Shown piece by piece: positions 6,295 through 23,654 of a stretch of 64,000 nt of DNA. Each line of letters starts with the position of its first letter. Within the stretch, counting starts at the first letter, position 1. The notes beneath the pieces are model-generated. The model had not been told where the DNA came from. It did not search any database and saw nothing but the letters and a program-made list of their open reading frames with translations. The translations under genes and the position numbers were made by a program. Source of the stretch: an uncultured Nitrososphaerota archaeon (lineage in GTDB: Archaea; Thermoproteota; Nitrososphaeria; Nitrososphaerales; Nitrosopumilaceae); NCBI GenBank assembly GCA_963701075.1, contig OY969559.1:1536001-1600000 (forward strand). The letters are read 5' to 3'.

Positions 6295-6870
6295 ATGACA
6301 ACAATCGTAGGAATCAAGACAAGAAATGGAATAGTCCTAGGCTCAGACAAAAGAGCAAGCAAGGGATTCTTCATAGGATCAAAGATAGTCCAAAAGATTG
6401 CAAAGATAGATGAAACGCTGGCAGTGGCAATCGCAGGTCAGCTCTCTGATGCAGAATACATAATCAAGGTAGCAAAAGCAGAGAGAAGACTCATGGAACT
6501 TAGAAGAGGATTCCCTCTAACTGTAAAAGAGTCTACTAGATTGATTGCAAATCTGGCCTACTCTGGCTTGAGAAACTATCAGCCATACTATATTGAGTTA
6601 CTTGTGGCAGGAGTAGACCAACATGGTGCACATGTATATGCAGCCGATATGAGTGGTGCCATAACATCAGAAGACTTTGCCTCGTCAGGTTCTGGTTCTC
6701 CCATTGCATATGGAGTACTCGAAAGTCTATACAACAAGGAGATCAAAAATGAGCAAGCAAAGGAAATTGCTACGCGAGCAGTTGCTGCTGCAATGGAACG
6801 AGATCCAGGCTCAGGTAACGGAATAGATGTGCTAGCAATACCAATGATAACAAGGGAGGTTGCAGCATAA
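6295..6870 (+). CDS. psmB: 20S proteasome beta subunit (no propeptide)
   Basis: MTTIVGI N-terminus, SDKRAS, K33 region, GSGS, RDPGSG. Confidence 0.92.
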   Translation: MTTIVGIKTRNGIVLGSDKRASKGFFIGSKIVQKIAKIDETLAVAIAGQLSDAEYIIKVAKAERRLMELRRGFPLTVKESTRLIANLAYSGLRNYQPYYIELLVAGVDQHGAHVYAADMSGAITSEDFASSGSGSPIAYGVLESLYNKEIKNEQAKEIATRAVAAAMERDPGSGNGIDVLAIPMITREVAA

Positions 6871-7536
6871 ATGTCAGAATCTTCAAATGCTGGAAGGTTT
6901 CCTTTCTATGGACCTCAAGGCAGACTTGTTCTAGTAGACAGCGCACTAGAAGCAGTAAGTCGCGGGTCAACCACAATAGGAATCAAGACTCCAAAATTTG
7001 CCATACTTTCAAGCCAGATAAAACCTACACACCCATTGATAGAACCATCTGAGAAAATATTCTCGATTGATTACCACGTAGGTGCTACGGGTTCAGGATA
7101 CATTGGAGATATCTTGCAGTGAATTGATACCCTGAGACTGGAAGCTCAGAAACACAAATTGACATATGAAAGCCCAATAGATACAGATTCTCTGGCAAAA
7201 CATCTCAGCACTTACCTACACAACTATACAACATATGCTGTAAGACCACAGGCGGCTTCAATAATAATAGCTGGCTCAGATGAGACAGGAGTACAGCTAT
7301 ATCAGGTGGACCCAAGTGGTACTTTCTTTAGGGGTTCCGGCTTTGTCATAGGTCAGGCATCAGACATAGCACTCGATGTGGTAACAAAGGAGTATAGCGC
7401 AGACTTGACCCAGCAACAGGCCATAGATCTATCAAAAAAGGCAATAGAGAAAGCACTTGGTGAAAAACCAATTGTTGAGACAGGCATTGTTCTTGCAAGC
7501 GAAAATACGTTCCACAAGCTTCCCTTAGACAAGTAA
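6871..7536 (+). CDS. psmA: 20S proteasome alpha subunit, divergent; one in-frame TGA at 7120-7122 (probable sequencing error)
   Basis: GPQGRL...ALEAVSRGSTTIGI...EKIF...LYQVDPSG; ORFs 6871 and 7159 are in the same frame. Confidence 0.8.
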
Positions 7537-7620
7537 GATTCTCCCTACCTTCATTTTTTTTTTGCAGATATAGTCATGTATTCAGATCTATGCCAAACGT
7601 GTTATTTTACCAGATTATGA

Positions 7621-7690
7621 TTGATAAAAAAAGAGATGCGATGAGAAATTCCAATGCAAGTGACTTCTCATCGTATTCTCGTTTTATTAA
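7621..7690. other. long imperfect hairpin (candidate sRNA or terminator)
   Basis: TTGATAAAA..GAGATGCGATGAGAA / TTCTCATCGTATTCTC.TTTTATTAA. Confidence 0.55.
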
Positions 7691-7715
7691 CTGATAAAGA
7701 TATATTTTAAAAAAT

Positions 7716-7738
7716 TGGTACATTTGTAGATTGTACCA
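7716..7738. promoter_or_regulatory. operator TGGTACA-N9-TGTACCA (perfect inverted repeat)
   Basis: TGGTACA tttgtagat TGTACCA; on the minus strand N5 then TTAAAA. Confidence 0.75.
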
Positions 7739-7981
7739 TCTTGTAATCTACAAGACATAGAACGTGGACAGTAGAACTGTGTCAGATAAGCGTTCAACAC
7801 ATAGATGTCATGTATTTTTTTTGATGATTTGTACCTATAAGAGATCAATACAGCAACAATAGTAATGATATGCGTTAATGAGTAGTGATAAATAAAAAAG
7901 ACGATAACCACGTAATGAACGCCTGTTCTGACGTGGTTTTGTCGTCCTTACAAACTATCGTTCGATCATTATAAAGAATTA

Positions 7982-8016
7982 TAGTACAATCGAGGAATGT
8001 ACCACCAATATTATAA
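7982..8016 (+). promoter_or_regulatory. operator TAGTACA-N9-TGTACCA plus TATA box
   Basis: TGTACCA 7998-8004, TTATAA 8011-8016. Confidence 0.7.
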
Positions 8017-8038
8017 AAATCTCAAGCCATCATAATAC

Positions 8039-8116
8039 GTGAACGAAGAAAAAGCCATTCCAAAAGAATCTGAACAGAAGAAAAGAAAATGGTATCGGTT
8101 TTGGACCAAACAATAA
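8039..8116 (+). CDS. 25-aa basic/aromatic micro-protein (not in ORF track)
   Basis: GTG start 41 nt after the TGTACCA box; MNEEKAIPKESEQKKRKWYRFWTKQ. Confidence 0.5.
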   Translation: MNEEKAIPKESEQKKRKWYRFWTKQ

Positions 8117-8183: not shown

Positions 8184-8912
8184 TTAATTATATTGACTGA
8201 AAGAATTCAGTCTCTTCCCGCTAGACTTGTTCTGGAATACTTTGGTTATTTGCTCAAATATACGATATGCACTTACCATGGCTTCTGCCTTACTTTTGTC
8301 CCCTACAGCGTTACTCTCTACAATTGCATATCTCGATACTATCTTGAGGTTGACTTGGAACTTGTCACCATTAGTCCATTGTAACACATATCCTCCGTCT
8401 CCATCTATCAACCCTATCCAGCGTAAATTACCAAACCATTTTCCAACAAGCTTGTTTACAATTTCTTCAACCTCCACTGTATTAGGGATGTATAACTGAA
8501 GCACCTGAACAAACTGGTGTTGTTTAGATACTTTTCTAGACAAGTTCTCAAGGTCCAGTTTTGACCTCTTGACTAGAATTGACCTAAGATTCTTGCTTGG
8601 CCTATAACCTACTGCGCTTTTCTCTACGAGACCAGAATTTTCTAACCTATGCAAAGATCTTGAGAGGCTTTGTTGATGCATTCCCAGTTTTCTTGCAAGA
8701 CCATTGAAGGTATATTGGTTATCAGATAAATCATTGTCTTGGTTTAATATTGACAAAACTTTCTTGTCATTTACCTGAAAGTCATCAAGTGATATCCCAG
8801 AAGCGTCATCAATTATGAGTTGCACTATCTTGTCGTTTACCGTTATCTCTTTTTCTTCTGTTTTGTCCTCTATTTCAGTCCTGATTTCTTTGTTTTCCAT
8901 TTTTTCTATCAC
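8184..8912 (-). CDS. winged-helix (MarR-like) transcription regulator
   Basis: FNGLARKLGMHQQSLSRSLHRLENSGLVEK. Confidence 0.75.
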   Translation of the reverse strand: MIEKMENKEIRTEIEDKTEEKEITVNDKIVQLIIDDASGISLDDFQVNDKKVLSILNQDNDLSDNQYTFNGLARKLGMHQQSLSRSLHRLENSGLVEKSAVGYRPSKNLRSILVKRSKLDLENLSRKVSKQHQFVQVLQLYIPNTVEVEEIVNKLVGKWFGNLRWIGLIDGDGGYVLQWTNGDKFQVNLKIVSRYAIVESNAVGDKSKAEAMVSAYRIFEQITKVFQNKSSGKRLNSFSQYN

Positions 8913-12320: not shown

Positions 12321-12332
12321 TAATTCTGGAGT

Positions 12333-12351
12333 TGTACCAATGACGTTAAGA
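12333..12351 (+). promoter_or_regulatory. TGTACCA box plus TTAAGA TATA-like element
   Basis: 41 nt upstream of ATG 12374. Confidence 0.7.
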
Positions 12352-12373: not shown

Positions 12374-12799
12374 ATGCAAAATGTGAGTTCCAGTATAGGA
12401 AAGAAGCCATTAGTCTATGCATACTTTATCCTATTCTCAATCATTTTTTTAGGAATAGTGTTTGTATTAATTTCACAATTGAACATGGCAACTGTTGACC
12501 AATCCTATTCCGAATCATCAGGTAAAATGATATCAAACGAAACAATGCCTGAGATGTCTGCCAATATGTCAGGTATGCATGGCATGTCTGGGATGTCTGC
12601 CAATATGTCAGGTATGCATGGCATGTCTGGGATGTCTGCCAATATGTCAGGTATGCATGGCATGTCTGGGATGTTAGGAATATCTTCAAATGAAAAAATG
12701 TCGATTTTTTTAGAATGGATGTTTATAATCACAGCAGGTTTGATAGGCATACCTTTTGCATGGGTTATCATAAGTGAAAGAAGAAAAAATTCCCGTTGA
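12374..12799 (+). CDS. 2-TM membrane protein with Met/His-rich loop
   Basis: Two hydrophobic helices flanking (MSANMSGMHGMSG)x3. Confidence 0.85.
   Translation: MQNVSSSIGKKPLVYAYFILFSIIFLGIVFVLISQLNMATVDQSYSESSGKMISNETMPEMSANMSGMHGMSGMSANMSGMHGMSGMSANMSGMHGMSGMLGISSNEKMSIFLEWMFIITAGLIGIPFAWVIISERRKNSR
12553..12674 (+). repeat. 39-nt tandem repeat x3 (coding)
   Basis: GATGTCTGCCAATATGTCAGGTATGCATGGCATGTCTGG repeated exactly. Confidence 0.95.
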
Positions 12800-13650: not shown

Positions 13651-13981
13651 AGTAGACTCAGAATCCTGAGTCCACTTTAGAAACAGAGGCTCTACTAGGC
13701 ATGCTGCTAAATCATAGTACTTCTTCTAAAACCAACACCTATGATCTGAAAACATGGCAGACAGCAAATAGTGCTGAATTGATAAATAGACAGAAACTGT
13801 AGAACGGTGACCAAGAAACAGAGTTAGGGTACTGTCATCAATATAACTCGCCTACAGTTTCTAAATGAAAATGTATCTGATGATTAAATACATTTTTGGT
13901 ACAATTCCCAAAGAGAGTATAATAATTTAGATTAGAAATTAGTTTTCAATAGTGAGAATCACTTCGATGTTTTTTATGCAG

Positions 13982-14068
13982 AATTTTTCCAACCCGTATC
14001 CTTGTTGCACGAGACGATGCTCCATGCAACAAAGAGCGGATCAGTGATGAAGTCAACGATACGTCGTT
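13982..14068 (-). ncRNA. candidate structured sRNA, copy A
   Basis: Homologous to 15287-15375; conserved stems with G-U pairs on the minus strand; own box+TTTATC promoter at 14092-14125. Confidence 0.6.
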
Positions 14069-14254
14069 AAATCTTATTGCCATCTTTGTCAGATAAATGA
14101 ATTGGTACAGTTACAGAATAAACCATAAGTGCTTGAGTAGGATATTTTGTTCTTAAAAAAATATATTTTTTAGTTTCACATCATAGAGACCCTATAGCTC
14201 TTATCATGCTGAATGAAAAAATAAATTTATTTTAAAAAATTTGTATTTGGGGTT

Positions 14255-15073
14255 TTAGCCCATGCTGTTAAACCCTTCTGCGATGGAGAATGTTGATGTG
14301 TATCTTTGATCATTTCCATCAAGGTATAGATCATGGTTGCTGACATTAACTAATGCAAAGTCAGTTACTCCATCGGGATTTGCTCCTCCTGTACCATCTG
14401 CACCCACATTAAAGTGGTATACACATATGCCATCTTTTGTATCCGATAATTGCTGAAGATATTGTACAGGTGGCGCTTCCAGTGTTAGTACACCGCCATC
14501 AATTATGCCCTCATAGAGTCTCAAATCTGGAGTTCCATTTGGTTCACATGGAAGAACCATTGCCATATGCCCCATTGTCGTATACCATGGAGTGGTGTCA
14601 GCCACATCCAGAAATTGTCCTGGTTTGAGATGTACGCTACCAAAATGGAACCATTCTTCAGTTGGGATGTTTGGAGGAGCATCAGCAGTTTGATTATATC
14701 CCGGTGAGAACGCTTCGCAGCGACCATAATATGCTATTCCTTGATAGACATAGCACGGATTAGCTGCTGATGAAGCAGAGCTGTCTGCAACACACCAACC
14801 AGTGAATGTCCACGGATTACCTAAAAATGAGGTAGTATCAGTGAAGGTTGGTATTGGCGGCCCTCCCAGATATGTGGCAGGATATGTCGTCTGCTGACAA
14901 GTTCCTTCAGATGTTGTGAACGCCGGTACATACACCCAAGGAGTGGAGGTATACATTTTTGGGGTCACAAGTGCGTACGCAGAAGGTACTATGTGAGTCG
15001 GACCTAGTCCAAACCCAACAGTAGCAACAATTGTCAGTACTAGGATTGTAGTTAGAAGCGATTGTTTTTGCAC
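14255..15073 (-). CDS. secreted protein with His/Met/Cys motifs (putative Cu-binding)
   Basis: Signal peptide; DTTP..GHMAMVLPC...CVYH. Confidence 0.8.
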   Translation of the reverse strand: MQKQSLLTTILVLTIVATVGFGLGPTHIVPSAYALVTPKMYTSTPWVYVPAFTTSEGTCQQTTYPATYLGGPPIPTFTDTTSFLGNPWTFTGWCVADSSASSAANPCYVYQGIAYYGRCEAFSPGYNQTADAPPNIPTEEWFHFGSVHLKPGQFLDVADTTPWYTTMGHMAMVLPCEPNGTPDLRLYEGIIDGGVLTLEAPPVQYLQQLSDTKDGICVYHFNVGADGTGGANPDGVTDFALVNVSNHDLYLDGNDQRYTSTFSIAEGFNSMG

Positions 15074-15109
15074 TATTGAACTTGAACAAATTGATTTATT
15101 TTAAGAGTC

Positions 15110-15132
15110 TGGTTCATTCTACAAATGTACCA
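15110..15132. promoter_or_regulatory. operator TGGTTCA-N9-TGTACCA
   Basis: Minus strand TGAACCA-N5-TTAAAA, 43 nt upstream of the 15073 start. Confidence 0.7.
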
Positions 15133-15286
15133 GTAGTGTTTTGAGATAAATCAACATGTTTTGTTTCTAAAGATCGTAAGTTTCTAAATCAGAATTTCTC
15201 AGGATCAAATACAATTTCGATACAATTTACAAATAGTTGGAATCTATTTGTAATGCGAAATATTGTGGAGTGGCATTTGGATGTAA

Positions 15287-15375
15287 AATTTTTCCAACCC
15301 GATCCCCGTTGCACGGCATGACATGCCATACAACAAAGGATGGATCAGTGATGAAGTCAAAACGATACGCGTCTT
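15287..15375 (-). ncRNA. candidate structured sRNA, copy B
   Basis: See copy A; degenerate box+TTTATC promoter at 15400-15433. Confidence 0.6.
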
Positions 15376-15473
15376 GTTTATTGATTAAACATTTTACAAG
15401 ATAAAGCAATAGATACATTTGCAGAATAAACCACTGAAAAAATTATGAAAAAATAGATTCAGAATATACAGAG

Positions 15474-16892
15474 TCAGTTGCAGACAGGATTGTTTAGACA
15501 ATGAAGACTTGCGCCAGTAAGAGTTGCACCGCCCAAGTCTACGCTCCTTAAATCAGCACCGTCAAAATTAGCTCCTGTTAGGTCTGCATAAGCAAATCCA
15601 GTACCTTGCAAGCTTGCACCCCTGAAATCAGCACCTCTAAGGTCAGAATTCATGAGAAGTGCACCGTCTAGATCCGCGCCATTAAATGAGACACGTTCCA
15701 TAGTTGCCCACCTCATCTGACTCCCCTGCAAATTAGCACCAGTCATGTTTGCACCATTAAGAGTCACATAGTCAAAATCAGAAGTTCCCAAGTCGGTGCC
15801 AATCATTTGCGTGCCACTCATATTTGCGCTAGAAAGATCACTGTTTTCCATATTAGCATTGGTAAAGTTAGCAAAGTCAATGTTTGCTTCCACCAAGTCT
15901 GATTTGTAAAGGTTCGCACCAGCAAAATTTGCGCCAACAAGATTGGCTGACGATAGATTAACATGGCTTAGATTATTTCCAGATTTATCGCAGAACGCCC
16001 AATCCACACTAGGAAGGTTTTCTGTCTGACAATAACCCGCGTGACGTACCACATCTACATTTACTTGATATGGAGGCCTTGCGGGAGAACTGAAGTATTT
16101 TATATAATCAGCTGATGTCAAGTTGCCTGATGATAACACTCCTGCCAAATCTGCTAGCGCATTAGGCGTGGATAGCATATTAGATTGTGGTGTTCCTGCC
16201 ATACTATTCATCATACCTTGCGCGTAATAATCAAATGAAAATATTCCTGACATGCCAATCATGTTATTCTCAATCTTATCAAAGAAAGAAGGGATAATAA
16301 TGCACTGCGATGTCTGTCCTGGCAAGCTTTGCGTGTTAACACAATTTGGTTTTGAATATGACATGCTGCTACCAGAGGTCGACATGCCTGACATGCCGTT
16401 CATGCCTGACATGCCGTTCATGCCTGACATGCCGTTCATGCCTGACATGCCGTTCATGCCTGACATTCCTGACATGCCTTGCGTATTACAATTTGTCATT
16501 TCCGACATGGCTTGCGGATTATATGCCATGCTTTGAACGTCATTACAGTATATCGTTTGCCCCATCGCTGTTAGCAAACCATCAGATGTACTGCTTATTC
16601 CTGACATGCTACTCATACCTGACATATTGGCAGACATCCCAGACATACCTTGCATGTTATTTGAAGATGAGTTAGCAAAGTTTTGACCTGAAACAAGAGT
16701 CTGTATCGAATTAATAAAATCTTGGTCACTGATTTGCCCATTGGCCCACAGTAATGCCTTGTAATGAAACCATGCCGGTATGGTGGTTGGCATGACTTGG
16801 GCGCTAGCATGATTTTGTGACAATCCCATGCTGAGAATCAATACAGAGAAGAGTAGCGTTACTGCTGTTAATGTTATTCTTGTTGTTTGCAT
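15474..16892 (-). CDS. secreted Met-rich pentapeptide-repeat protein
   Basis: Signal peptide, IPAW...GQISDQDF motif, (GMS/GMN)n, A(D/N)LxG repeats. Confidence 0.9.
   Translation of the reverse strand: MQTTRITLTAVTLLFSVLILSMGLSQNHASAQVMPTTIPAWFHYKALLWANGQISDQDFINSIQTLVSGQNFANSSSNNMQGMSGMSANMSGMSSMSGISSTSDGLLTAMGQTIYCNDVQSMAYNPQAMSEMTNCNTQGMSGMSGMNGMSGMNGMSGMNGMSGMNGMSGMSTSGSSMSYSKPNCVNTQSLPGQTSQCIIIPSFFDKIENNMIGMSGIFSFDYYAQGMMNSMAGTPQSNMLSTPNALADLAGVLSSGNLTSADYIKYFSSPARPPYQVNVDVVRHAGYCQTENLPSVDWAFCDKSGNNLSHVNLSSANLVGANFAGANLYKSDLVEANIDFANFTNANMENSDLSSANMSGTQMIGTDLGTSDFDYVTLNGANMTGANLQGSQMRWATMERVSFNGADLDGALLMNSDLRGADFRGASLQGTGFAYADLTGANFDGADLRSVDLGGATLTGASLHCLNNPVCN
16387..16476 (-). repeat. 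18-nt (9-nt based) tandem repeat encoding GMNGMS
   Basis: CCTGACATGCCGTTCATG x4 plus degenerate 9-mers. Confidence 0.95.
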
Positions 16893-16936: not shown

Positions 16937-16959
16937 TGGTACATTCGATAATTGTACCA
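16937..16959. promoter_or_regulatory. operator TGGTACA-N9-TGTACCA (perfect inverted repeat)
   Basis: Minus strand followed by N5-TTTATT, upstream of 16892. Confidence 0.8.
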
Positions 16960-19523: not shown

Positions 19524-19572
19524 TGGTACAAAATCAAAACAAGAATTGTTGTTCTATTTTACAACTGTACCA
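19524..19572. promoter_or_regulatory. divergent TGTACCA boxes
   Basis: TGGTACA 19524-19530 (minus: N5-TATATA) and TGTACCA 19566-19572 (plus, before copCD). Confidence 0.7.
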
Positions 19573-19619: not shown

Positions 19620-22600
19620 ATGACAGAAAGAACGAGAGGGCCAAAATCAACAATCAAAATAATTTTGCTAGTCGTTGTAGCTGTATCGGTCTTGGTCGTG
19701 GTGCCAAACATACCCAAGTCTTATGCGCATGCATTTGTTATTGGTAGTGATCCTGCACCATTTGCGTCATTGAATACTCCACCAACACAAGTTGAAGTAG
19801 ATTTTGTTGATCCCATAGACATGCGATATAGTCAGATAAAGGTCTTGGATTCTAACGGTAAAGAAGTCAATAACAACGACTGGCATTTCATCACTGCTGA
19901 TCATGAAAAATCAGTTGTTACTTTACCTTCCATTCCGAATGGAATTTACACTGTGTATACCAAAGTTCTTGATGCCACTGATGGCCATACCACTACAAAC
20001 GCATTTGTTTTTGCCGTTGGCCAACCTATACCACAGAATCTCTTAAACCAAAAAGAGAGTGTTTCCTTTACAGATATCGTATCCATTCAAGATACAATAG
20101 CAAGGTATCCATCACTTGTTGGACAAATCATTGTAGTTGGTGCTATCTTCTCAACTTTCTGGTTATGGAAACCACTATCTAGAATCTCTGCATTAAAAGA
20201 CGTCTTTGGACAGACTCGCGTCATGATAGACAAGAGTATGACCAAGTTGGTGCTAATTGGCTCAATAATTATTCTGGGTGGAGATGCGGCAATGATTTCA
20301 TCTGAGATGTATTCAATAAATTCAGGACTCCTAGATGCAATTAGCACGAATTTTGGACAAATGTGGATTGTACGTATGTCACTTTCTGCAGCCCTATTTG
20401 GAGTGGCATTTGTTGCATACCGTAAACAAAAGCAGTCAAATGGGGTCTTGCCCAAAGGCCTAGTCGCAACTCTGTTTGGACTGGGGATAGCGGTACTTAC
20501 GACAACTACACTGATAAGCCATGGTGCAGCAAGCGGAAAATTTTTGGCACTAGTTTTTGATTTCGTACACAACGTTGTTGCTTCACTCTGGATTGGAGGT
20601 GTGATATATCTGGCGTTTGTTGTGGCACCGCTATTGAAACGTATGCCTGATGATCGTGCCAGCGTTGCCATCATGTCTGTGATAATACCAAGATTCTCCA
20701 CGGTAGTTGTTGCACTACTTGGCATAGTTGCAATGACAGGTCCCTCTCTTCTTTACGAACTTGAAAACAACCTCTCCCTCACTCTAGCATCCATATACGG
20801 AGATATACTTATCATAAAACTCTCATTGGCCGGTGCCATGATTGGAGTTGGCGCTTTCCATCAGTTCATAATTTTTCGACAAGCGCGAAGCGCCATTGCT
20901 GTCTCGCCTCAGCAAGAGCATCATGTTGCCATGCCAATCGATCTAAAAATTCCTATCAAGAGGGGAAGCGAGGGCAAATCAGTCATCTCACATTTTGGCC
21001 GATTCATAAAAATTGAGGCAATAATAGGATTTTTGCTGATTGCTTCAATAGCAGTTCTTGTCGATTCCGGTCTGCCCGCAATTCAATATCAAAATGAATT
21101 GTCGCAACAGAAAAACCAGATTCCGCCTGTCTACGCCTTTGCAACGCCACTTGTAACGCAGAACCAATTTACAGAAACGCGATTTACAGACACGGGGGAC
21201 AAAATTGTCTTATCCATCAGTCCGTTCTATTCCGGAAAGAATAATGTAACGCTCTCGTTTTTTGATTCAAATGGTAACCCACTGAACAGCATAAACTCCA
21301 CAACGATAACGCTTAACCAAGTAGACAAGGGCATAGGTCCGTTAGTGGTAGGGTACAACCCACTCGAACCACAGTTCAATAGCAGCAACTCTAAAGAGAT
21401 ATCACCGGGGGTATTTTCCATTAGCACAAGTGCCTTTGCAATACCGGGTCACTGGGAAGCACAGATAGAGGGAACAACCACACAGGCTGGTGCACTTAAC
21501 GAGGTTACAACTTTTGATGATCTATATGTCAAGCCTAACTTGGCCCAGCTGCAGGCAAACATAACAGAATACAAAATGCCAGATAACGCCCAGCCGTTGT
21601 ATCCTCTTTATGATCCCATCAGAAATATAGTCTGGGTTGGAGACTCGGCCATTGGGAGTGGGAGGTTATGGGAGTTTGATCTAGACTCCAAACAGTTTAC
21701 AGAACATAAGATCAATGGAACCAACATCATCATGTATACAATAATGGACTTTCAAAACAACATTTGGTATTCTGACCCCCTAACAAAGATCTTGGGTAAT
21801 TACGAACCAGACACGGGCAAAGAGCAGAATTACAATCTTCCTGCCAATGAGACCATTTCAGGTCTTGCCATAGACAACACAGGCAATCTTTGGATGACCT
21901 CTGCGTCAAGTAACCAACTGCTAGAATTTGACATGCAGAAAAAAACATTCCATTCATTGGACCTGCCAGCAAACTCTTCACCACTTGGAATTTCCATAGA
22001 TCAATCAACCAACCAGATATGGGTAGCAGAAAGTAGTTCTGGAAAGATAGCAGAGGTAGATCCTTCCCAAAACTACAAAGTGACAGAATATGGTCCATCC
22101 AATGGCACCCTTGCAAGTCCCACGACGATTCTATTTGACCCTGTAACTGGCAAAGTTTTTGTCTCAGAGCATGATGGCAAGGCAGTATCAGTTTTTGATC
22201 CCCTGACCAAGTCATTCGAAAGATATCAGACAGATCCTGATCCTCAGGATCTGCCCTTTGGAATGGCATTTGATGCAAACCATGATCTATGGCTTGCTCA
22301 ACACACCTTTGATAAGATTGCAGTTATAGATCCTAGAACTGGCAAAACAAACGAATTTCCCATCCCTACGAAATCATCTTTTACCCAATGGGTCACAGCG
22401 GATTCAAAGGGAGATATAATACTGGCAGAACAACGCGCAAATGCACTTGGTCTTCTTACTACTAGCACAACTCCAGGATTTATCGAAAACGCCGAACAAA
22501 CAGGTTCAGTCTTGGGCATACCACTGCCATTTAGTTATGCAGATGTGGTAGGACCCTCGATTGCAGGTTGCCTCGTAGCAGTGGCATTTCTCTACTCTAA

Positions 22601-22658
22601 AACCGTAATAGAGTTAAGTGACAGTTTGAGACATATAAAGAAAAACTACGGCCAGTGA
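19620..22658 (+). CDS. CopC-CopD fusion with Ig-like and Vgb/NHL-type beta-propeller domains
   Basis: SYA-HAF..SDP, DGH (CopC); SHG, H...SLWIGG, YG..L..K (CopD); propeller repeats; C-terminal TM. Confidence 0.9.
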   Translation: MTERTRGPKSTIKIILLVVVAVSVLVVVPNIPKSYAHAFVIGSDPAPFASLNTPPTQVEVDFVDPIDMRYSQIKVLDSNGKEVNNNDWHFITADHEKSVVTLPSIPNGIYTVYTKVLDATDGHTTTNAFVFAVGQPIPQNLLNQKESVSFTDIVSIQDTIARYPSLVGQIIVVGAIFSTFWLWKPLSRISALKDVFGQTRVMIDKSMTKLVLIGSIIILGGDAAMISSEMYSINSGLLDAISTNFGQMWIVRMSLSAALFGVAFVAYRKQKQSNGVLPKGLVATLFGLGIAVLTTTTLISHGAASGKFLALVFDFVHNVVASLWIGGVIYLAFVVAPLLKRMPDDRASVAIMSVIIPRFSTVVVALLGIVAMTGPSLLYELENNLSLTLASIYGDILIIKLSLAGAMIGVGAFHQFIIFRQARSAIAVSPQQEHHVAMPIDLKIPIKRGSEGKSVISHFGRFIKIEAIIGFLLIASIAVLVDSGLPAIQYQNELSQQKNQIPPVYAFATPLVTQNQFTETRFTDTGDKIVLSISPFYSGKNNVTLSFFDSNGNPLNSINSTTITLNQVDKGIGPLVVGYNPLEPQFNSSNSKEISPGVFSISTSAFAIPGHWEAQIEGTTTQAGALNEVTTFDDLYVKPNLAQLQANITEYKMPDNAQPLYPLYDPIRNIVWVGDSAIGSGRLWEFDLDSKQFTEHKINGTNIIMYTIMDFQNNIWYSDPLTKILGNYEPDTGKEQNYNLPANETISGLAIDNTGNLWMTSASSNQLLEFDMQKKTFHSLDLPANSSPLGISIDQSTNQIWVAESSSGKIAEVDPSQNYKVTEYGPSNGTLASPTTILFDPVTGKVFVSEHDGKAVSVFDPLTKSFERYQTDPDPQDLPFGMAFDANHDLWLAQHTFDKIAVIDPRTGKTNEFPIPTKSSFTQWVTADSKGDIILAEQRANALGLLTTSTTPGFIENAEQTGSVLGIPLPFSYADVVGPSIAGCLVAVAFLYSKTVIELSDSLRHIKKNYGQ

Positions 22659-22720
22659 TGCCACACCGCATAGGCAGTCACAGATAGCATCATCAGACTA
22701 TATCAGGCACGTTCGTTCGT

Positions 22721-22738
22721 TGTACCACTTGGTTTAAA
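22721..22738 (+). promoter_or_regulatory. TGTACCA-N5-TTTAAA promoter
   Basis: 41 nt upstream of GTG 22762. Confidence 0.75.
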
Positions 22739-22761: not shown

Positions 22762-23154
22762 GTGTTCAGGCCCCAAACTCTGATTGAGACTAAGTCTACA
22801 CTGTTAAGTGTAATAATATTTGCACTTGTTGCAGCGTTATCAATTCCTGTCATCCTACCCCACATATTTCAACAATACGAGCTTTTCCACATACTTTTAC
22901 ACATTAGCGGAATAGGTTTTGCGTCTTTTCTTACAATAGTAGCTGCAATGGCATATCACAAGGTCAAGACCCGCAGACTTCTTTTCACTACCATTGCGTT
23001 TGGCACTTTTATTTTGTCTGAAGTATTTGATCTAATTGATGCAGCATGGCAGTCAAAATATTATTTTTGGAGTTTTTCATCATCTGAGATAGCTCATCTT
23101 ATCATGTTCTTCACATTACTGATGTTTGCACTAAGTGTGTTTAGGAGAGATTGA
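22762..23154 (+). CDS. 4-TM His-containing membrane protein
   Basis: Hydrophobic; PH..FHILLH; overlaps the next gene by 4 nt. Confidence 0.8.
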   Translation: MFRPQTLIETKSTLLSVIIFALVAALSIPVILPHIFQQYELFHILLHISGIGFASFLTIVAAMAYHKVKTRRLLFTTIAFGTFILSEVFDLIDAAWQSKYYFWSFSSSEIAHLIMFFTLLMFALSVFRRD

Positions 23155-23654
23155 AAATGGATAGAGTTACACAGTTAATTGAGGTTATTGAAAAAAACCC
23201 TGGAATAAAATTTCGCGAGATAATGCGAGAGACTGGAATGAAAAACGGCGTTCTAGGATATTATGCAGGCAAGCTAGAAAGAGAGGGATCTGTAAAGGTT
23301 GATAGAAGTCCTGGGCAGACTAGATTTTATCCTCCAGGAATATCAGATGATGACACATTACTGATAAAGAATCTAAGACAGGAGACACCAAGGCAGATTC
23401 TTGCATCTTTATTGCAATATGGAATGCTATCATTCAATGAGCTAGTTGAGAAGACACGAAAATCTCCGGCTACAGTTTCCCTCTATCTCTCACAAGTAAC
23501 AAGAGACAATATCATTGAAAGTAAACTAGTCGATTTCAAAAAGAGATACCATGTTAAAGACATAGAAAAATTACAAAAAATTATTGATAAATATCATCCA
23601 AGCTTGATTGAAAGTTCAGCGGATCATCTTGCCGATACTTTCTCATCACTTTAA
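23151..23654 (+). CDS. double winged-helix transcription regulator
   Basis: NPGIKFREIMRETGMKNGVLGYY..LE and SFNELVE..KSPATVSLYL. Confidence 0.85.
   Translation: MKMDRVTQLIEVIEKNPGIKFREIMRETGMKNGVLGYYAGKLEREGSVKVDRSPGQTRFYPPGISDDDTLLIKNLRQETPRQILASLLQYGMLSFNELVEKTRKSPATVSLYLSQVTRDNIIESKLVDFKKRYHVKDIEKLQKIIDKYHPSLIESSADHLADTFSSL

Follow-up and report, generated by a model that had tools for sequence, protein, structure and literature searches.

Does the copper island of a Nitrososphaerota archaeon encode a small RNA (sRNA), and if so, on which message does that RNA act? The question is raised by two similar units of ~95 nucleotides (nt) in a 64,000-nt stretch of genomic DNA from an uncultured member of this phylum (contig OY969559.1, positions 1,536,001 to 1,600,000; hereafter termed the window). 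An earlier reading of the bare sequence (the original prediction) described them as a duplicated structured RNA gene of ~90 nt, each copy being served by its own copper-box promoter. Both copies were located on the minus strand at the positions proposed, from 14070 to 13975 (copy 1) and from 15378 to 15280 (copy 2), and they folded alike. The element is very probably a real sRNA gene of a new archaeal sRNA family. On balance, judging from sequence, the two copies appear to be paralogous genes for a trans-acting, base-pairing sRNA of ~95 nt that acts in copper economy.

Alignment of the two copies over ~165 nt (211 alignment columns), promoter included, gave 81% mean column identity. A BLAST search of the whole 1,915,938-base genome with copy 1 returned copy 1 itself and copy 2 (E 2.2e-18, 75% over 150 nt). 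No further copy was found in the 1.92-Mb genome, the other 6 BLAST matches having E values of at least 0.28. As had been noted, the copies have an identical 19-mer in common, and indels between them disrupt any common reading frame. No conserved open reading frame (ORF) was found when the RNA plus 40 nt was examined in 30 members of the family; the longest ORFs (11-42 amino acids, aa) differed in frame and in peptide. A small-protein gene was rejected on this ground.

Minimum free energy (MFE) folding of the minus strand gave -33.7 kcal/mol for copy 1 and -36.6 kcal/mol for copy 2, with z scores of -4.44 and -4.77, respectively; none of 200 dinucleotide shuffles equalled these values. Folding of the plus strand gave z scores of -1.53 and 0.00 and thus lacked this marked advantage over shuffles. 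In each fold, a weak hairpin at the 5′ end was followed by an unpaired stretch (CUUCAUCA for copy 1, ACUUCAUCA for copy 2) and then by one long hairpin (13989 to 14044 in copy 1 and 15294 to 15348 in copy 2, both minus strand). The frequent G-U pairs, which would be C-A on the opposite strand, fix the functional strand; together with the fold energies, they bear out the choice of the minus strand as the RNA strand. The basal stem proposed as (G)AUCC/GGAU(C) was present, but its extent had been drawn too short: it is a G-U-rich helix of 8 bp (CUGAUCCG/CGGGUUGG), surmounted in copy 1 by an inner stem and an upper stem. A 5′ mini-hairpin, also proposed, was predicted in both window copies (-3.1 and -4.8 kcal/mol); it is not a feature of the family, because 15 of 30 members lacked stable 5′ structure. 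The 5′ end of copy 1 is predicted near 14068-14070, and its 3′ end is uncertain because no run of five T (T5) follows the hairpin. The copies scored 106.3 bits (copy 1) and 105.7 bits (copy 2) with model R1.

Comparison with Rfam 15 revealed no match at gathering scores in the whole 64-kb window, in agreement with the claim of an undescribed family. At E ≤ 10, the region 13800-15600 gave three chance-level matches (MALAT1, sau-41, and GNAS-AS1_3), none of them on the hairpin. A covariance model, the check suggested at the outset, was built from both copies and one BLAST relative. At E ≤ 1 it revealed 29 carriers of the element among 63 genomes of the genus, with strong covariation. Sixteen of the 33 high-quality genomes of the genus were carriers, mostly with one copy per genome. 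Three of the carriers (G232, G233, and G235) are flagged as unpublished; without the five genomes so flagged, carriers numbered 26 of 58.

Covariation was assessed in the 27 matches with E ≤ 0.001. Standard pairs occupied 88.4% of cells, vs. 34.9-47.5% when the 3′ partners were slid by 1-3 columns. Seventeen of 25 hairpin pairs had changed on both sides, and none of 500 column shuffles reached any of the five measures used; the alignment had been fitted to the model, which favors the structure. RNAalifold applied to the same alignment returned 19 pairs, 13 of which showed compensatory changes. The sequence of the apical loop was similar in many members. A T5 run within 25 nt after the hairpin was found in 17 of 30 members and in neither window copy, which counts against the proposed sRNA.

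Evidence for the element was confined to the genus. A BLAST search of 201 genomes of the taxonomic family with copy 1 yielded only 2 credible relatives and nothing beyond the genus. A search of 151 genomes of that family with model R2 gave a single match outside the genus (G133, 27.9 bits, E 0.042), which was rejected because it had neither operator nor seed. Since only 27 candidates were scored per genome in the R2 search, absence outside the genus is not established. A search of the genus for the pattern GTACCA-N35-65-GRCWTCAT was unspecific; its promoter-like matches were all loci already found by the model.

The proposal that each copy has its own promoter was borne out. An operator and a TATA box precede each copy, ~25 nt before the proposed 5′ end, the arrangement being TGTACCA-N5-TTTATC for copy 1 and TGTATCT-N5-TTTATC for copy 2. 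For copy 1, the TATA box TTTATC lies at 14092 to 14097 (minus strand) and the operator, a 23-nt inverted repeat TGGTTTATTC-N5-ACTGTACCA, at 14103 to 14125 (minus strand, 31.2 bits). For copy 2, the TATA box TTTATC lies at 15400 to 15405 (minus strand) and the operator, with right half TGTATCT, at 15411 to 15433 (minus strand, 26.6 bits). Across the family, the promoter block consists of the 23-nt inverted repeat (consensus TGGTATATTCGnnAAATGTACCA), a 5-nt spacer, and a TATA box TTTATC or CTTATT, with about 20-25 nt from the TATA box to the start of the conserved RNA. The operator can be written TGGTWTATTC-N5-AATGTACCA. Operator and TATA box were kept at a fixed distance in 28 of 30 members, though the neighboring genes vary.

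A weight matrix of the operator was scanned over the whole genome. There were 13 matches of at least 15.8 bits; 11 of these fell on 7 sites between 7716 and 19572 of the window, and 2 lay elsewhere. The genome had 12 matches above 16 bits, vs. 1-3 in shuffled genomes. The seven sites comprise those of both sRNA genes, those of genes for 272-aa, 472-aa, and 1012-aa proteins, and palindromic sites at 7716 and 7982. The simpler pattern TGTACCA-N4-6-YTTAW occurred 6 times in the window (0.10 expected), in some cases upstream of the p100, p297, and p130 genes. The operator is thus nearly confined to the copper island in this genome, and it is likely that the sRNA genes belong to a copper regulon.

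The unpaired stretch holds an invariant sequence, (U)GACUUCAU(C), throughout the family, and within it a seed of 9-10 nt, UGACUUCAU(C). The seed lies at 14046 to 14055 in copy 1 (UGACUUCAUC, minus strand), where it is mostly unpaired in the MFE fold, and at 15350 to 15359 in copy 2 (minus strand). The conserved single strand had been given as CUUCAUCAC; its core is indeed invariant, but the trailing AC is specific to this clade. The idea that the seed is complementary to start regions held for a cupredoxin mRNA whose first bases are AUGAAGUCA. Outside the sRNA genes, the longest perfect complement of the copy 2 single strand in the whole genome was 14 nt (GAUGAAGUCAAAAC), and that of copy 1 was 11 nt. 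With its 5′ flank UUUU, the copy 2 seed showed 13-14 nt of perfect complementarity to the start of this plastocyanin-family mRNA. The 14-nt complement is located exactly on the ATG of a 195-aa ORF (genome C1:1413532, outside the window) that has a signal peptide, a plastocyanin/azurin domain, a Met-rich tail, and a C-terminal membrane helix. The PF00127 score was 42.4 bits (cut-off 21.2), so the top target is a member of a copper-protein family. A TATA-like box ends 23 nt before the ATG, and the mRNA is therefore probably leaderless, to judge from this spacing.

Duplex energies gave a similar picture. When 15-nt seed windows were compared with 8442 candidate start windows, the plastocyanin start had the best energy for copy 2 (-20.8 kcal/mol; mean -4.96, sd 2.29) and the second best for copy 1 (-16.3 kcal/mol). 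It also came first with the whole 5′ part of copy 2. In 12 of 13 sRNA/target pairs from 12 genomes, the duplex started at base 1 of the mRNA; the exception was G141, a genome in which the sRNA gene has no operator. In genome G194 the seed reads GACAUCAUC (U to A) and the orthologous target starts with AUGAUGUC (A to U). The cognate G194 duplex had an energy of -13.1 kcal/mol, vs. -8.7 kcal/mol with the usual target; the usual sRNA gave -16.5 kcal/mol with the usual target, vs. -12.7 kcal/mol with the G194-type target. The sole other substitution in the seed core was A to G in G216, G058, and G236, by which a G-U pair is kept. The remaining seed variation consisted of a terminal U to C change in one genome and one insertion in G141. 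These comparisons suggest that seed-target pairing is supported by one natural compensatory change, and we somewhat favor the plastocyanin-family mRNA as the target.

Several observations weigh against this assignment or narrow its basis. With the whole 32-nt 5′ part of copy 1, the plastocyanin start fell outside the top 12 of 8442 windows; RNAduplex energies of whole 5′ parts (32-34 nt) are dominated by long imperfect helices. Since neither the mRNA start nor the seed varies much, comparison yields a single compensatory event in favor of pairing, along with changes that wobble pairs tolerate. Over its first 30 nt the target hardly varies, even at synonymous sites beyond the paired part, and such conservation was seen as well in tandem paralogues and in 15 of 27 inspected homologues, these being from genomes without a detected sRNA. 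Some factor besides the sRNA evidently also constrains the target start, because genomes that gave no sRNA conserve it too. Such genomes make up 34 of the 63 in the genus, though close homologues of the target occur in every one of the 63. Uncompensated changes in the 8-nt core were present in none of 12 homologues from carriers vs. 2 of 15 from non-carriers (G207 and G234), a difference that involves small numbers. G207, a close relative of G194 with the same AUGAUGUC target, gave no sRNA match. The target-homologue rows of G232, G234, G235, and G077 are from unpublished genomes.

The cupredoxin gene starts showed a pattern of their own. In genes of the MKSKP type (loci L044-L073), the first 30 nt were near-identical across the genus, even when homologues had only 51-58% protein identity and when tandem paralogues were compared. 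A sister paralogue family starts with AUGAUGUC (MMSKP). These starts are under nucleotide-level constraint at an apparently leaderless 5′ end.

A start region GUGAUGAAG, also named in the original prediction, does exist; it opens a Met-rich pentapeptide-repeat paralogue and is a second, weaker candidate target. This 293-aa paralogue of the 472-aa island protein (genome C1:527199-527202, outside the window) starts with GGUGAUGAAGU, which ranked 2-3 of 8442 for copy 2 and is complementary to the clade-specific part of the single strand. The paralogue is thus a candidate for a second, clade-specific target on complementarity grounds.

The genes of the island, among them those for CopC/CopD, Met-rich proteins, a YHS protein, and a P1B-type ATPase that carries a YHS domain, also supply a candidate regulator. 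The sRNA gene stands divergent to the p130/HTH_167 operon in 21 of 28 loci of relatives, and the operator occupies the space between them. The products of this operon are a membrane protein of 130 aa with four helices and an ArsR/MarR-like double winged-helix protein of 167 aa; in the window, the gene of the latter lies at 23151 to 23654 (plus strand), and its product is the candidate for the protein that acts on the operator. Another HTH protein, of 242 aa, is encoded at 8184-8912. The operon has its own half operator, retained in the window at 22720. In the clade of the window, the sRNA genes lie beside the 272-aa and 472-aa genes, ~7-9 kb from the operon. HTH_167 was present in all 29 sRNA carriers, and the sRNA in none of 13 genomes without HTH_167 (Fisher p 9.5e-5, uncorrected for kinship); the p value overstates the case because the genomes are kin. 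The p130 and HTH_167 proteins are candidates for a sensor/regulator pair of the TGTACCA operator, and their operon resembles the NVIE_014290/014280 pair of PMC7785015. The operon occurs in 50 of 63 genus genomes (window 22762-23654, loci L020-L042).

In nine genomes without a model match, the region upstream of the p130 gene was searched again without filter, and only G161 gave a weak, degenerate copy. That copy (locus L086) is a 16.6-bit remnant upstream of its p130 gene and appears to be a decaying member. The G141 member (locus L038) is divergent, without operator and with a 2-nt insertion in the seed.

These elements can be combined into a working model. Each copy would be expressed from the minus strand by an archaeal promoter of its own. 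The sRNA would be made together with the copper-island regulon, because the same operator precedes the genes of the CopC-CopD fusion and of secreted and Met-rich proteins; the likely regulator would be the double winged-helix protein, which is divergent to the RNA gene in most relatives. The RNA is predicted to consist of a variable 5′ part, the invariant unpaired stretch, and the long covarying hairpin, often followed by a U-run. Its seed would pair with the first 9-13 nt, including the start codon, of the putatively leaderless mRNA of the 195-aa secreted plastocyanin/azurin-family protein, and this pairing may block ribosome loading, trigger decay, or both. During shortage, acquisition proteins of the CopCD type would go up, and the sRNA would stop synthesis of a dispensable cuproprotein.

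The direction of copper control in this model rests on a published motif. Reyes et al. 2020 reported the motif TTCSGSMTTTGWACYANT 35-70 nt upstream of genes up under Cu limitation in Nitrososphaera viennensis; according to that report (PMC7785015), the motif-bearing genes include a CopC/D gene, an operon in which an ArsR-type regulator is encoded, and genes for exported proteins without a known function. In the same text, putative plastocyanin genes were down under Cu limitation, and regulation of the Cop genes was explicitly left open (PMC7785015). The N. viennensis motif and the present operator have TTC...TG(T/A)AC(C/T)A-N-T in common, both stand just upstream of core promoters, the downstream genes are similar, and the published motif is sometimes on the opposite strand or doubled, as here (PMC7785015). 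Unlike it, the present operator is a full 23-nt inverted repeat. No RNA gene is described under the motif in PMC7785015, in the text of which the terms "sRNA," "small RNA," and "non-coding" each occur 0 times. The sRNA would be made in shortage and take part in a copper-economy circuit if the present operator corresponds to the Cu-limitation motif.

The same comparison gives room to a different action of a real copper-island sRNA: detoxification under copper excess by turning off a copper-binding or copper-importing protein, other main targets, or protein binding via the hairpin or its loop. With up to 3 mismatches, the published motif occurred 6 times in the window vs. 3.07 expected, a number equalled by 12 of 100 shuffles. 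Four of the six matches are TGTACCA-type sites (12324, 13895, 16944, and 22712), and neither of the two sRNA operators was matched at that threshold. Because the published motif is matched only in part, the equation of the two regulons, and with it the shortage direction, is a plausible inference. Induction by copper excess would be in keeping with the resistance-type genes of the island, i.e., those for the P1B ATPase with YHS domain, CopC/CopD, and Met-rich proteins. All of these points tell against copper sparing, and we consider that direction plausible but slightly doubtful. A different main target could be the 293-aa paralogue, in view of the rank of its start for copy 2, or one of the four genome ORFs that begin with ATGAAGTC; one of these encodes a 430-aa membrane protein, to which an NRAMP-type label was given by eye only. 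The similar apical loop in many members would suit a bound protein. Against these options, the plastocyanin start ranks first or second for both copies and has the sole compensatory change, the complementarity to GUGAUGAAG needs the AC confined to this clade, and in N. viennensis the CopC/D gene and other motif-bearing genes rise under limitation (PMC7785015). We consider a different action of the sRNA unlikely, though it is the alternative to which we give the most weight.

Could the element instead act in cis, as a terminator or attenuator of the neighboring convergent gene (CopCD in many relatives), as the 5′ leader of the 272-aa gene in the case of copy 2, or as the antisense partner of a plus-strand transcript? 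The 3′ ends of the element and of CopCD point toward each other in 12 of 28 loci of relatives, the 17 members mentioned above have a T5 run after the hairpin, and copy 2 precedes the 272-aa gene by 200 nt, both being on one strand. However, an operator and a TATA box of the element itself stand at a constant distance from it in 28 of 30 members, a terminator has no need of an invariant single strand upstream of its hairpin, and the G-U pairs put the functional strand opposite to CopCD. No same-strand gene lies downstream of copy 1, and in 21 of 28 loci the gene after the element is convergent or absent; a riboswitch or cis-acting 5′ leader was rejected for this reason. Between copy 2 and the 272-aa gene lie an operator and a TATA box that belong to the latter. 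A cis-acting element is thus improbable. More improbable still is a non-functional sequence, such as a small repeat or miniature inverted-repeat transposable element (MITE), or a decayed coding remnant, e.g., a piece from the 5′ end of a plastocyanin gene in inverted orientation. On the plus strand the sequence is ATGAAGTCAA(AAC), like the first codons of the plastocyanin-family gene, so the seed could derive from a captured gene start; however, the likeness stops at 13-14 nt and does not include the promoter or the remaining signal peptide. The hairpin is kept by compensatory changes throughout the genus, the promoter is conserved, and the RNA strand has no conserved ORF. A MITE or other small repeat was rejected because the element is present just twice in this genome and mostly once in each relative, where its sites are syntenic. 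Archaeal C/D-box sRNAs have a C box RUGAUGA and a D box CUGA, plus C′/D′ boxes, and are about 50-70 nt long. Assignment to this class was rejected as well, because the GUGAUGA lies on the plus strand, a second box pair is missing, and the RNA measures ~95 nt.

The proposed trans-acting, copper-economy sRNA can be compared with known systems. Iron-sparing sRNAs of bacteria include RyhB of E. coli, PrrF, and IsaR1. The present element resembles them in logic: it has its own promoter with a putatively metal-responsive operator and an unpaired seed directed at a translation start, its proposed target would use the scarce metal, and its gene lies among metal-homeostasis genes. It differs from them in having no sequence or structure relation (no Rfam match), an archaeal host, and copper as the metal; moreover, the target looks leaderless, and pairing would cover a 5′-terminal AUG instead of a Shine-Dalgarno site. 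Sparing of copper by small RNAs under deficiency is known from plants (PMC6631055). The Cu-microRNAs are miR397, miR398, miR408, and miR857, and SPL7 is the associated factor. These RNAs are induced by copper shortage, lower the mRNAs of dispensable copper proteins (blue copper proteins included), and are co-regulated with copper-acquisition genes through one promoter motif. The likeness is one of logic alone, since those are eukaryotic 21-nt RNAs that act with Argonaute and the present RNA is a structured archaeal one of ~95 nt.

Archaeal sRNAs have been reviewed (PMC4152357). Trans-acting ones have been characterized in Methanosarcina mazei, Haloferax volcanii, and Sulfolobus. Their independent transcription and a single-stranded region that pairs with mRNA are predicted for the present element as well. 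Unlike them, it belongs to a different phylum, that of ammonia-oxidizing archaea, and to a new family. The arrangement of the locus recalls the bacterial OxyS/OxyR and GcvB/GcvA pairs, in which an sRNA gene is divergent from its own transcription factor gene; here, too, an operon whose last gene encodes a DNA-binding protein runs away from the sRNA gene, and the operator separates the two (the 21 of 28 loci noted above). It differs in that the sRNA genes have moved ~7-9 kb away in the window clade and the regulator is a candidate. No sRNA in ammonia-oxidizing archaea and no copper-sparing prokaryotic sRNA was described in the full texts searched, whose coverage excludes most subscription journals. 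Within that literature, we tentatively suggest that this may be the first archaeal metal-economy riboregulator and the first prokaryotic copper-sparing sRNA, one that would clamp the AUG of a leaderless plastocyanin message.

Ammonia-oxidizing archaea carry out nitrification in soils and oceans with an unusually copper-dependent metabolism, and how they sense and ration copper is an open question. If the model is true, scarce copper would go to ammonia monooxygenase and the respiratory chain, and the pair would be the first functional sRNA-target pair in the phylum and a case of natural sRNA control of a leaderless message. The principle of metal-sparing small RNAs, known for iron in bacteria and copper in plants, would then extend to Archaea. 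The circuit is directly testable, as it offers an operator, an adjacent candidate regulator, an sRNA with a 9-10-nt seed, a named target, and a natural mutant pair. If the sRNA responds to copper excess instead, it would still be a new conserved sRNA of the copper regulon.

Other operator sites in the window precede protein-coding genes. The site at 15110 to 15132 is upstream of the gene for the 272-aa secreted protein (14255-15073, minus strand), and that at 16937 to 16959 is upstream of the gene for the 472-aa Met-rich pentapeptide-repeat protein (15474-16892, minus strand). The site at 19550 to 19572 (plus strand) is upstream of the gene for the 1012-aa CopC-CopD-propeller fusion (19620-22658). 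The half operator of the p130/HTH_167 operon (22762-23654) reads TTGTACCA-N5-TTTAA and lies at 22720 to 22737 (plus strand). Two more TTGTACCA half sites, at 12324-12341 and 13895-13912, match the N. viennensis motif with 2-3 mismatches. The former is upstream of the gene for a 141-aa Met-rich protein (12374-12799); the latter, on the minus strand just downstream of sRNA copy 1, is followed by a TATA-like TATTTAAT.

The two palindromic sites stand apart from these genes. The operator at 7716-7738 is followed on the minus strand by N5, a TATA-like TTTAAAATAT, a short hairpin (GAUGAGAAGU...AUUUCUCAUC), and a T7 run. A 78-nt stretch in window 7595-7740 (minus strand) had a fold z score of -3.41, and the region is conserved in G121 (87%) and in the unpublished genome G232 (75%). 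The 5′ arm of the hairpin in 7595-7740, GAUGAGAAGUCA, resembles the sRNA target sequence with 2 extra bases. The element may represent another very small RNA, a decoy, or an ORF of 18 codons. The operator at 7982-8004 scored on both strands, with N5 and a TATA-like box in both directions. Its minus-strand side (7862-8004) has a small hairpin and a T6 run with a weak fold (z -1.30), and its plus-strand side (8004-8110) has a possible 25-codon ORF.

Elsewhere in the genome, an identical 23-mer, cggttgattcgtcaactgttgca, was found at 9 places (e.g., C1:334385, 452239, and 1737908). It is a weak match to the operator matrix (11.1 bits) and probably belongs to a gene family or repeated element. In the window, a proteasome-subunit gene is seemingly split into an 83-aa ORF (6871-7122) and a 125-aa ORF (7159-7536). 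The 125-aa ORF matches positions 73-186 of the Pfam Proteasome profile, and a complete 191-aa subunit gene (6295-6870) lies just before the split one.

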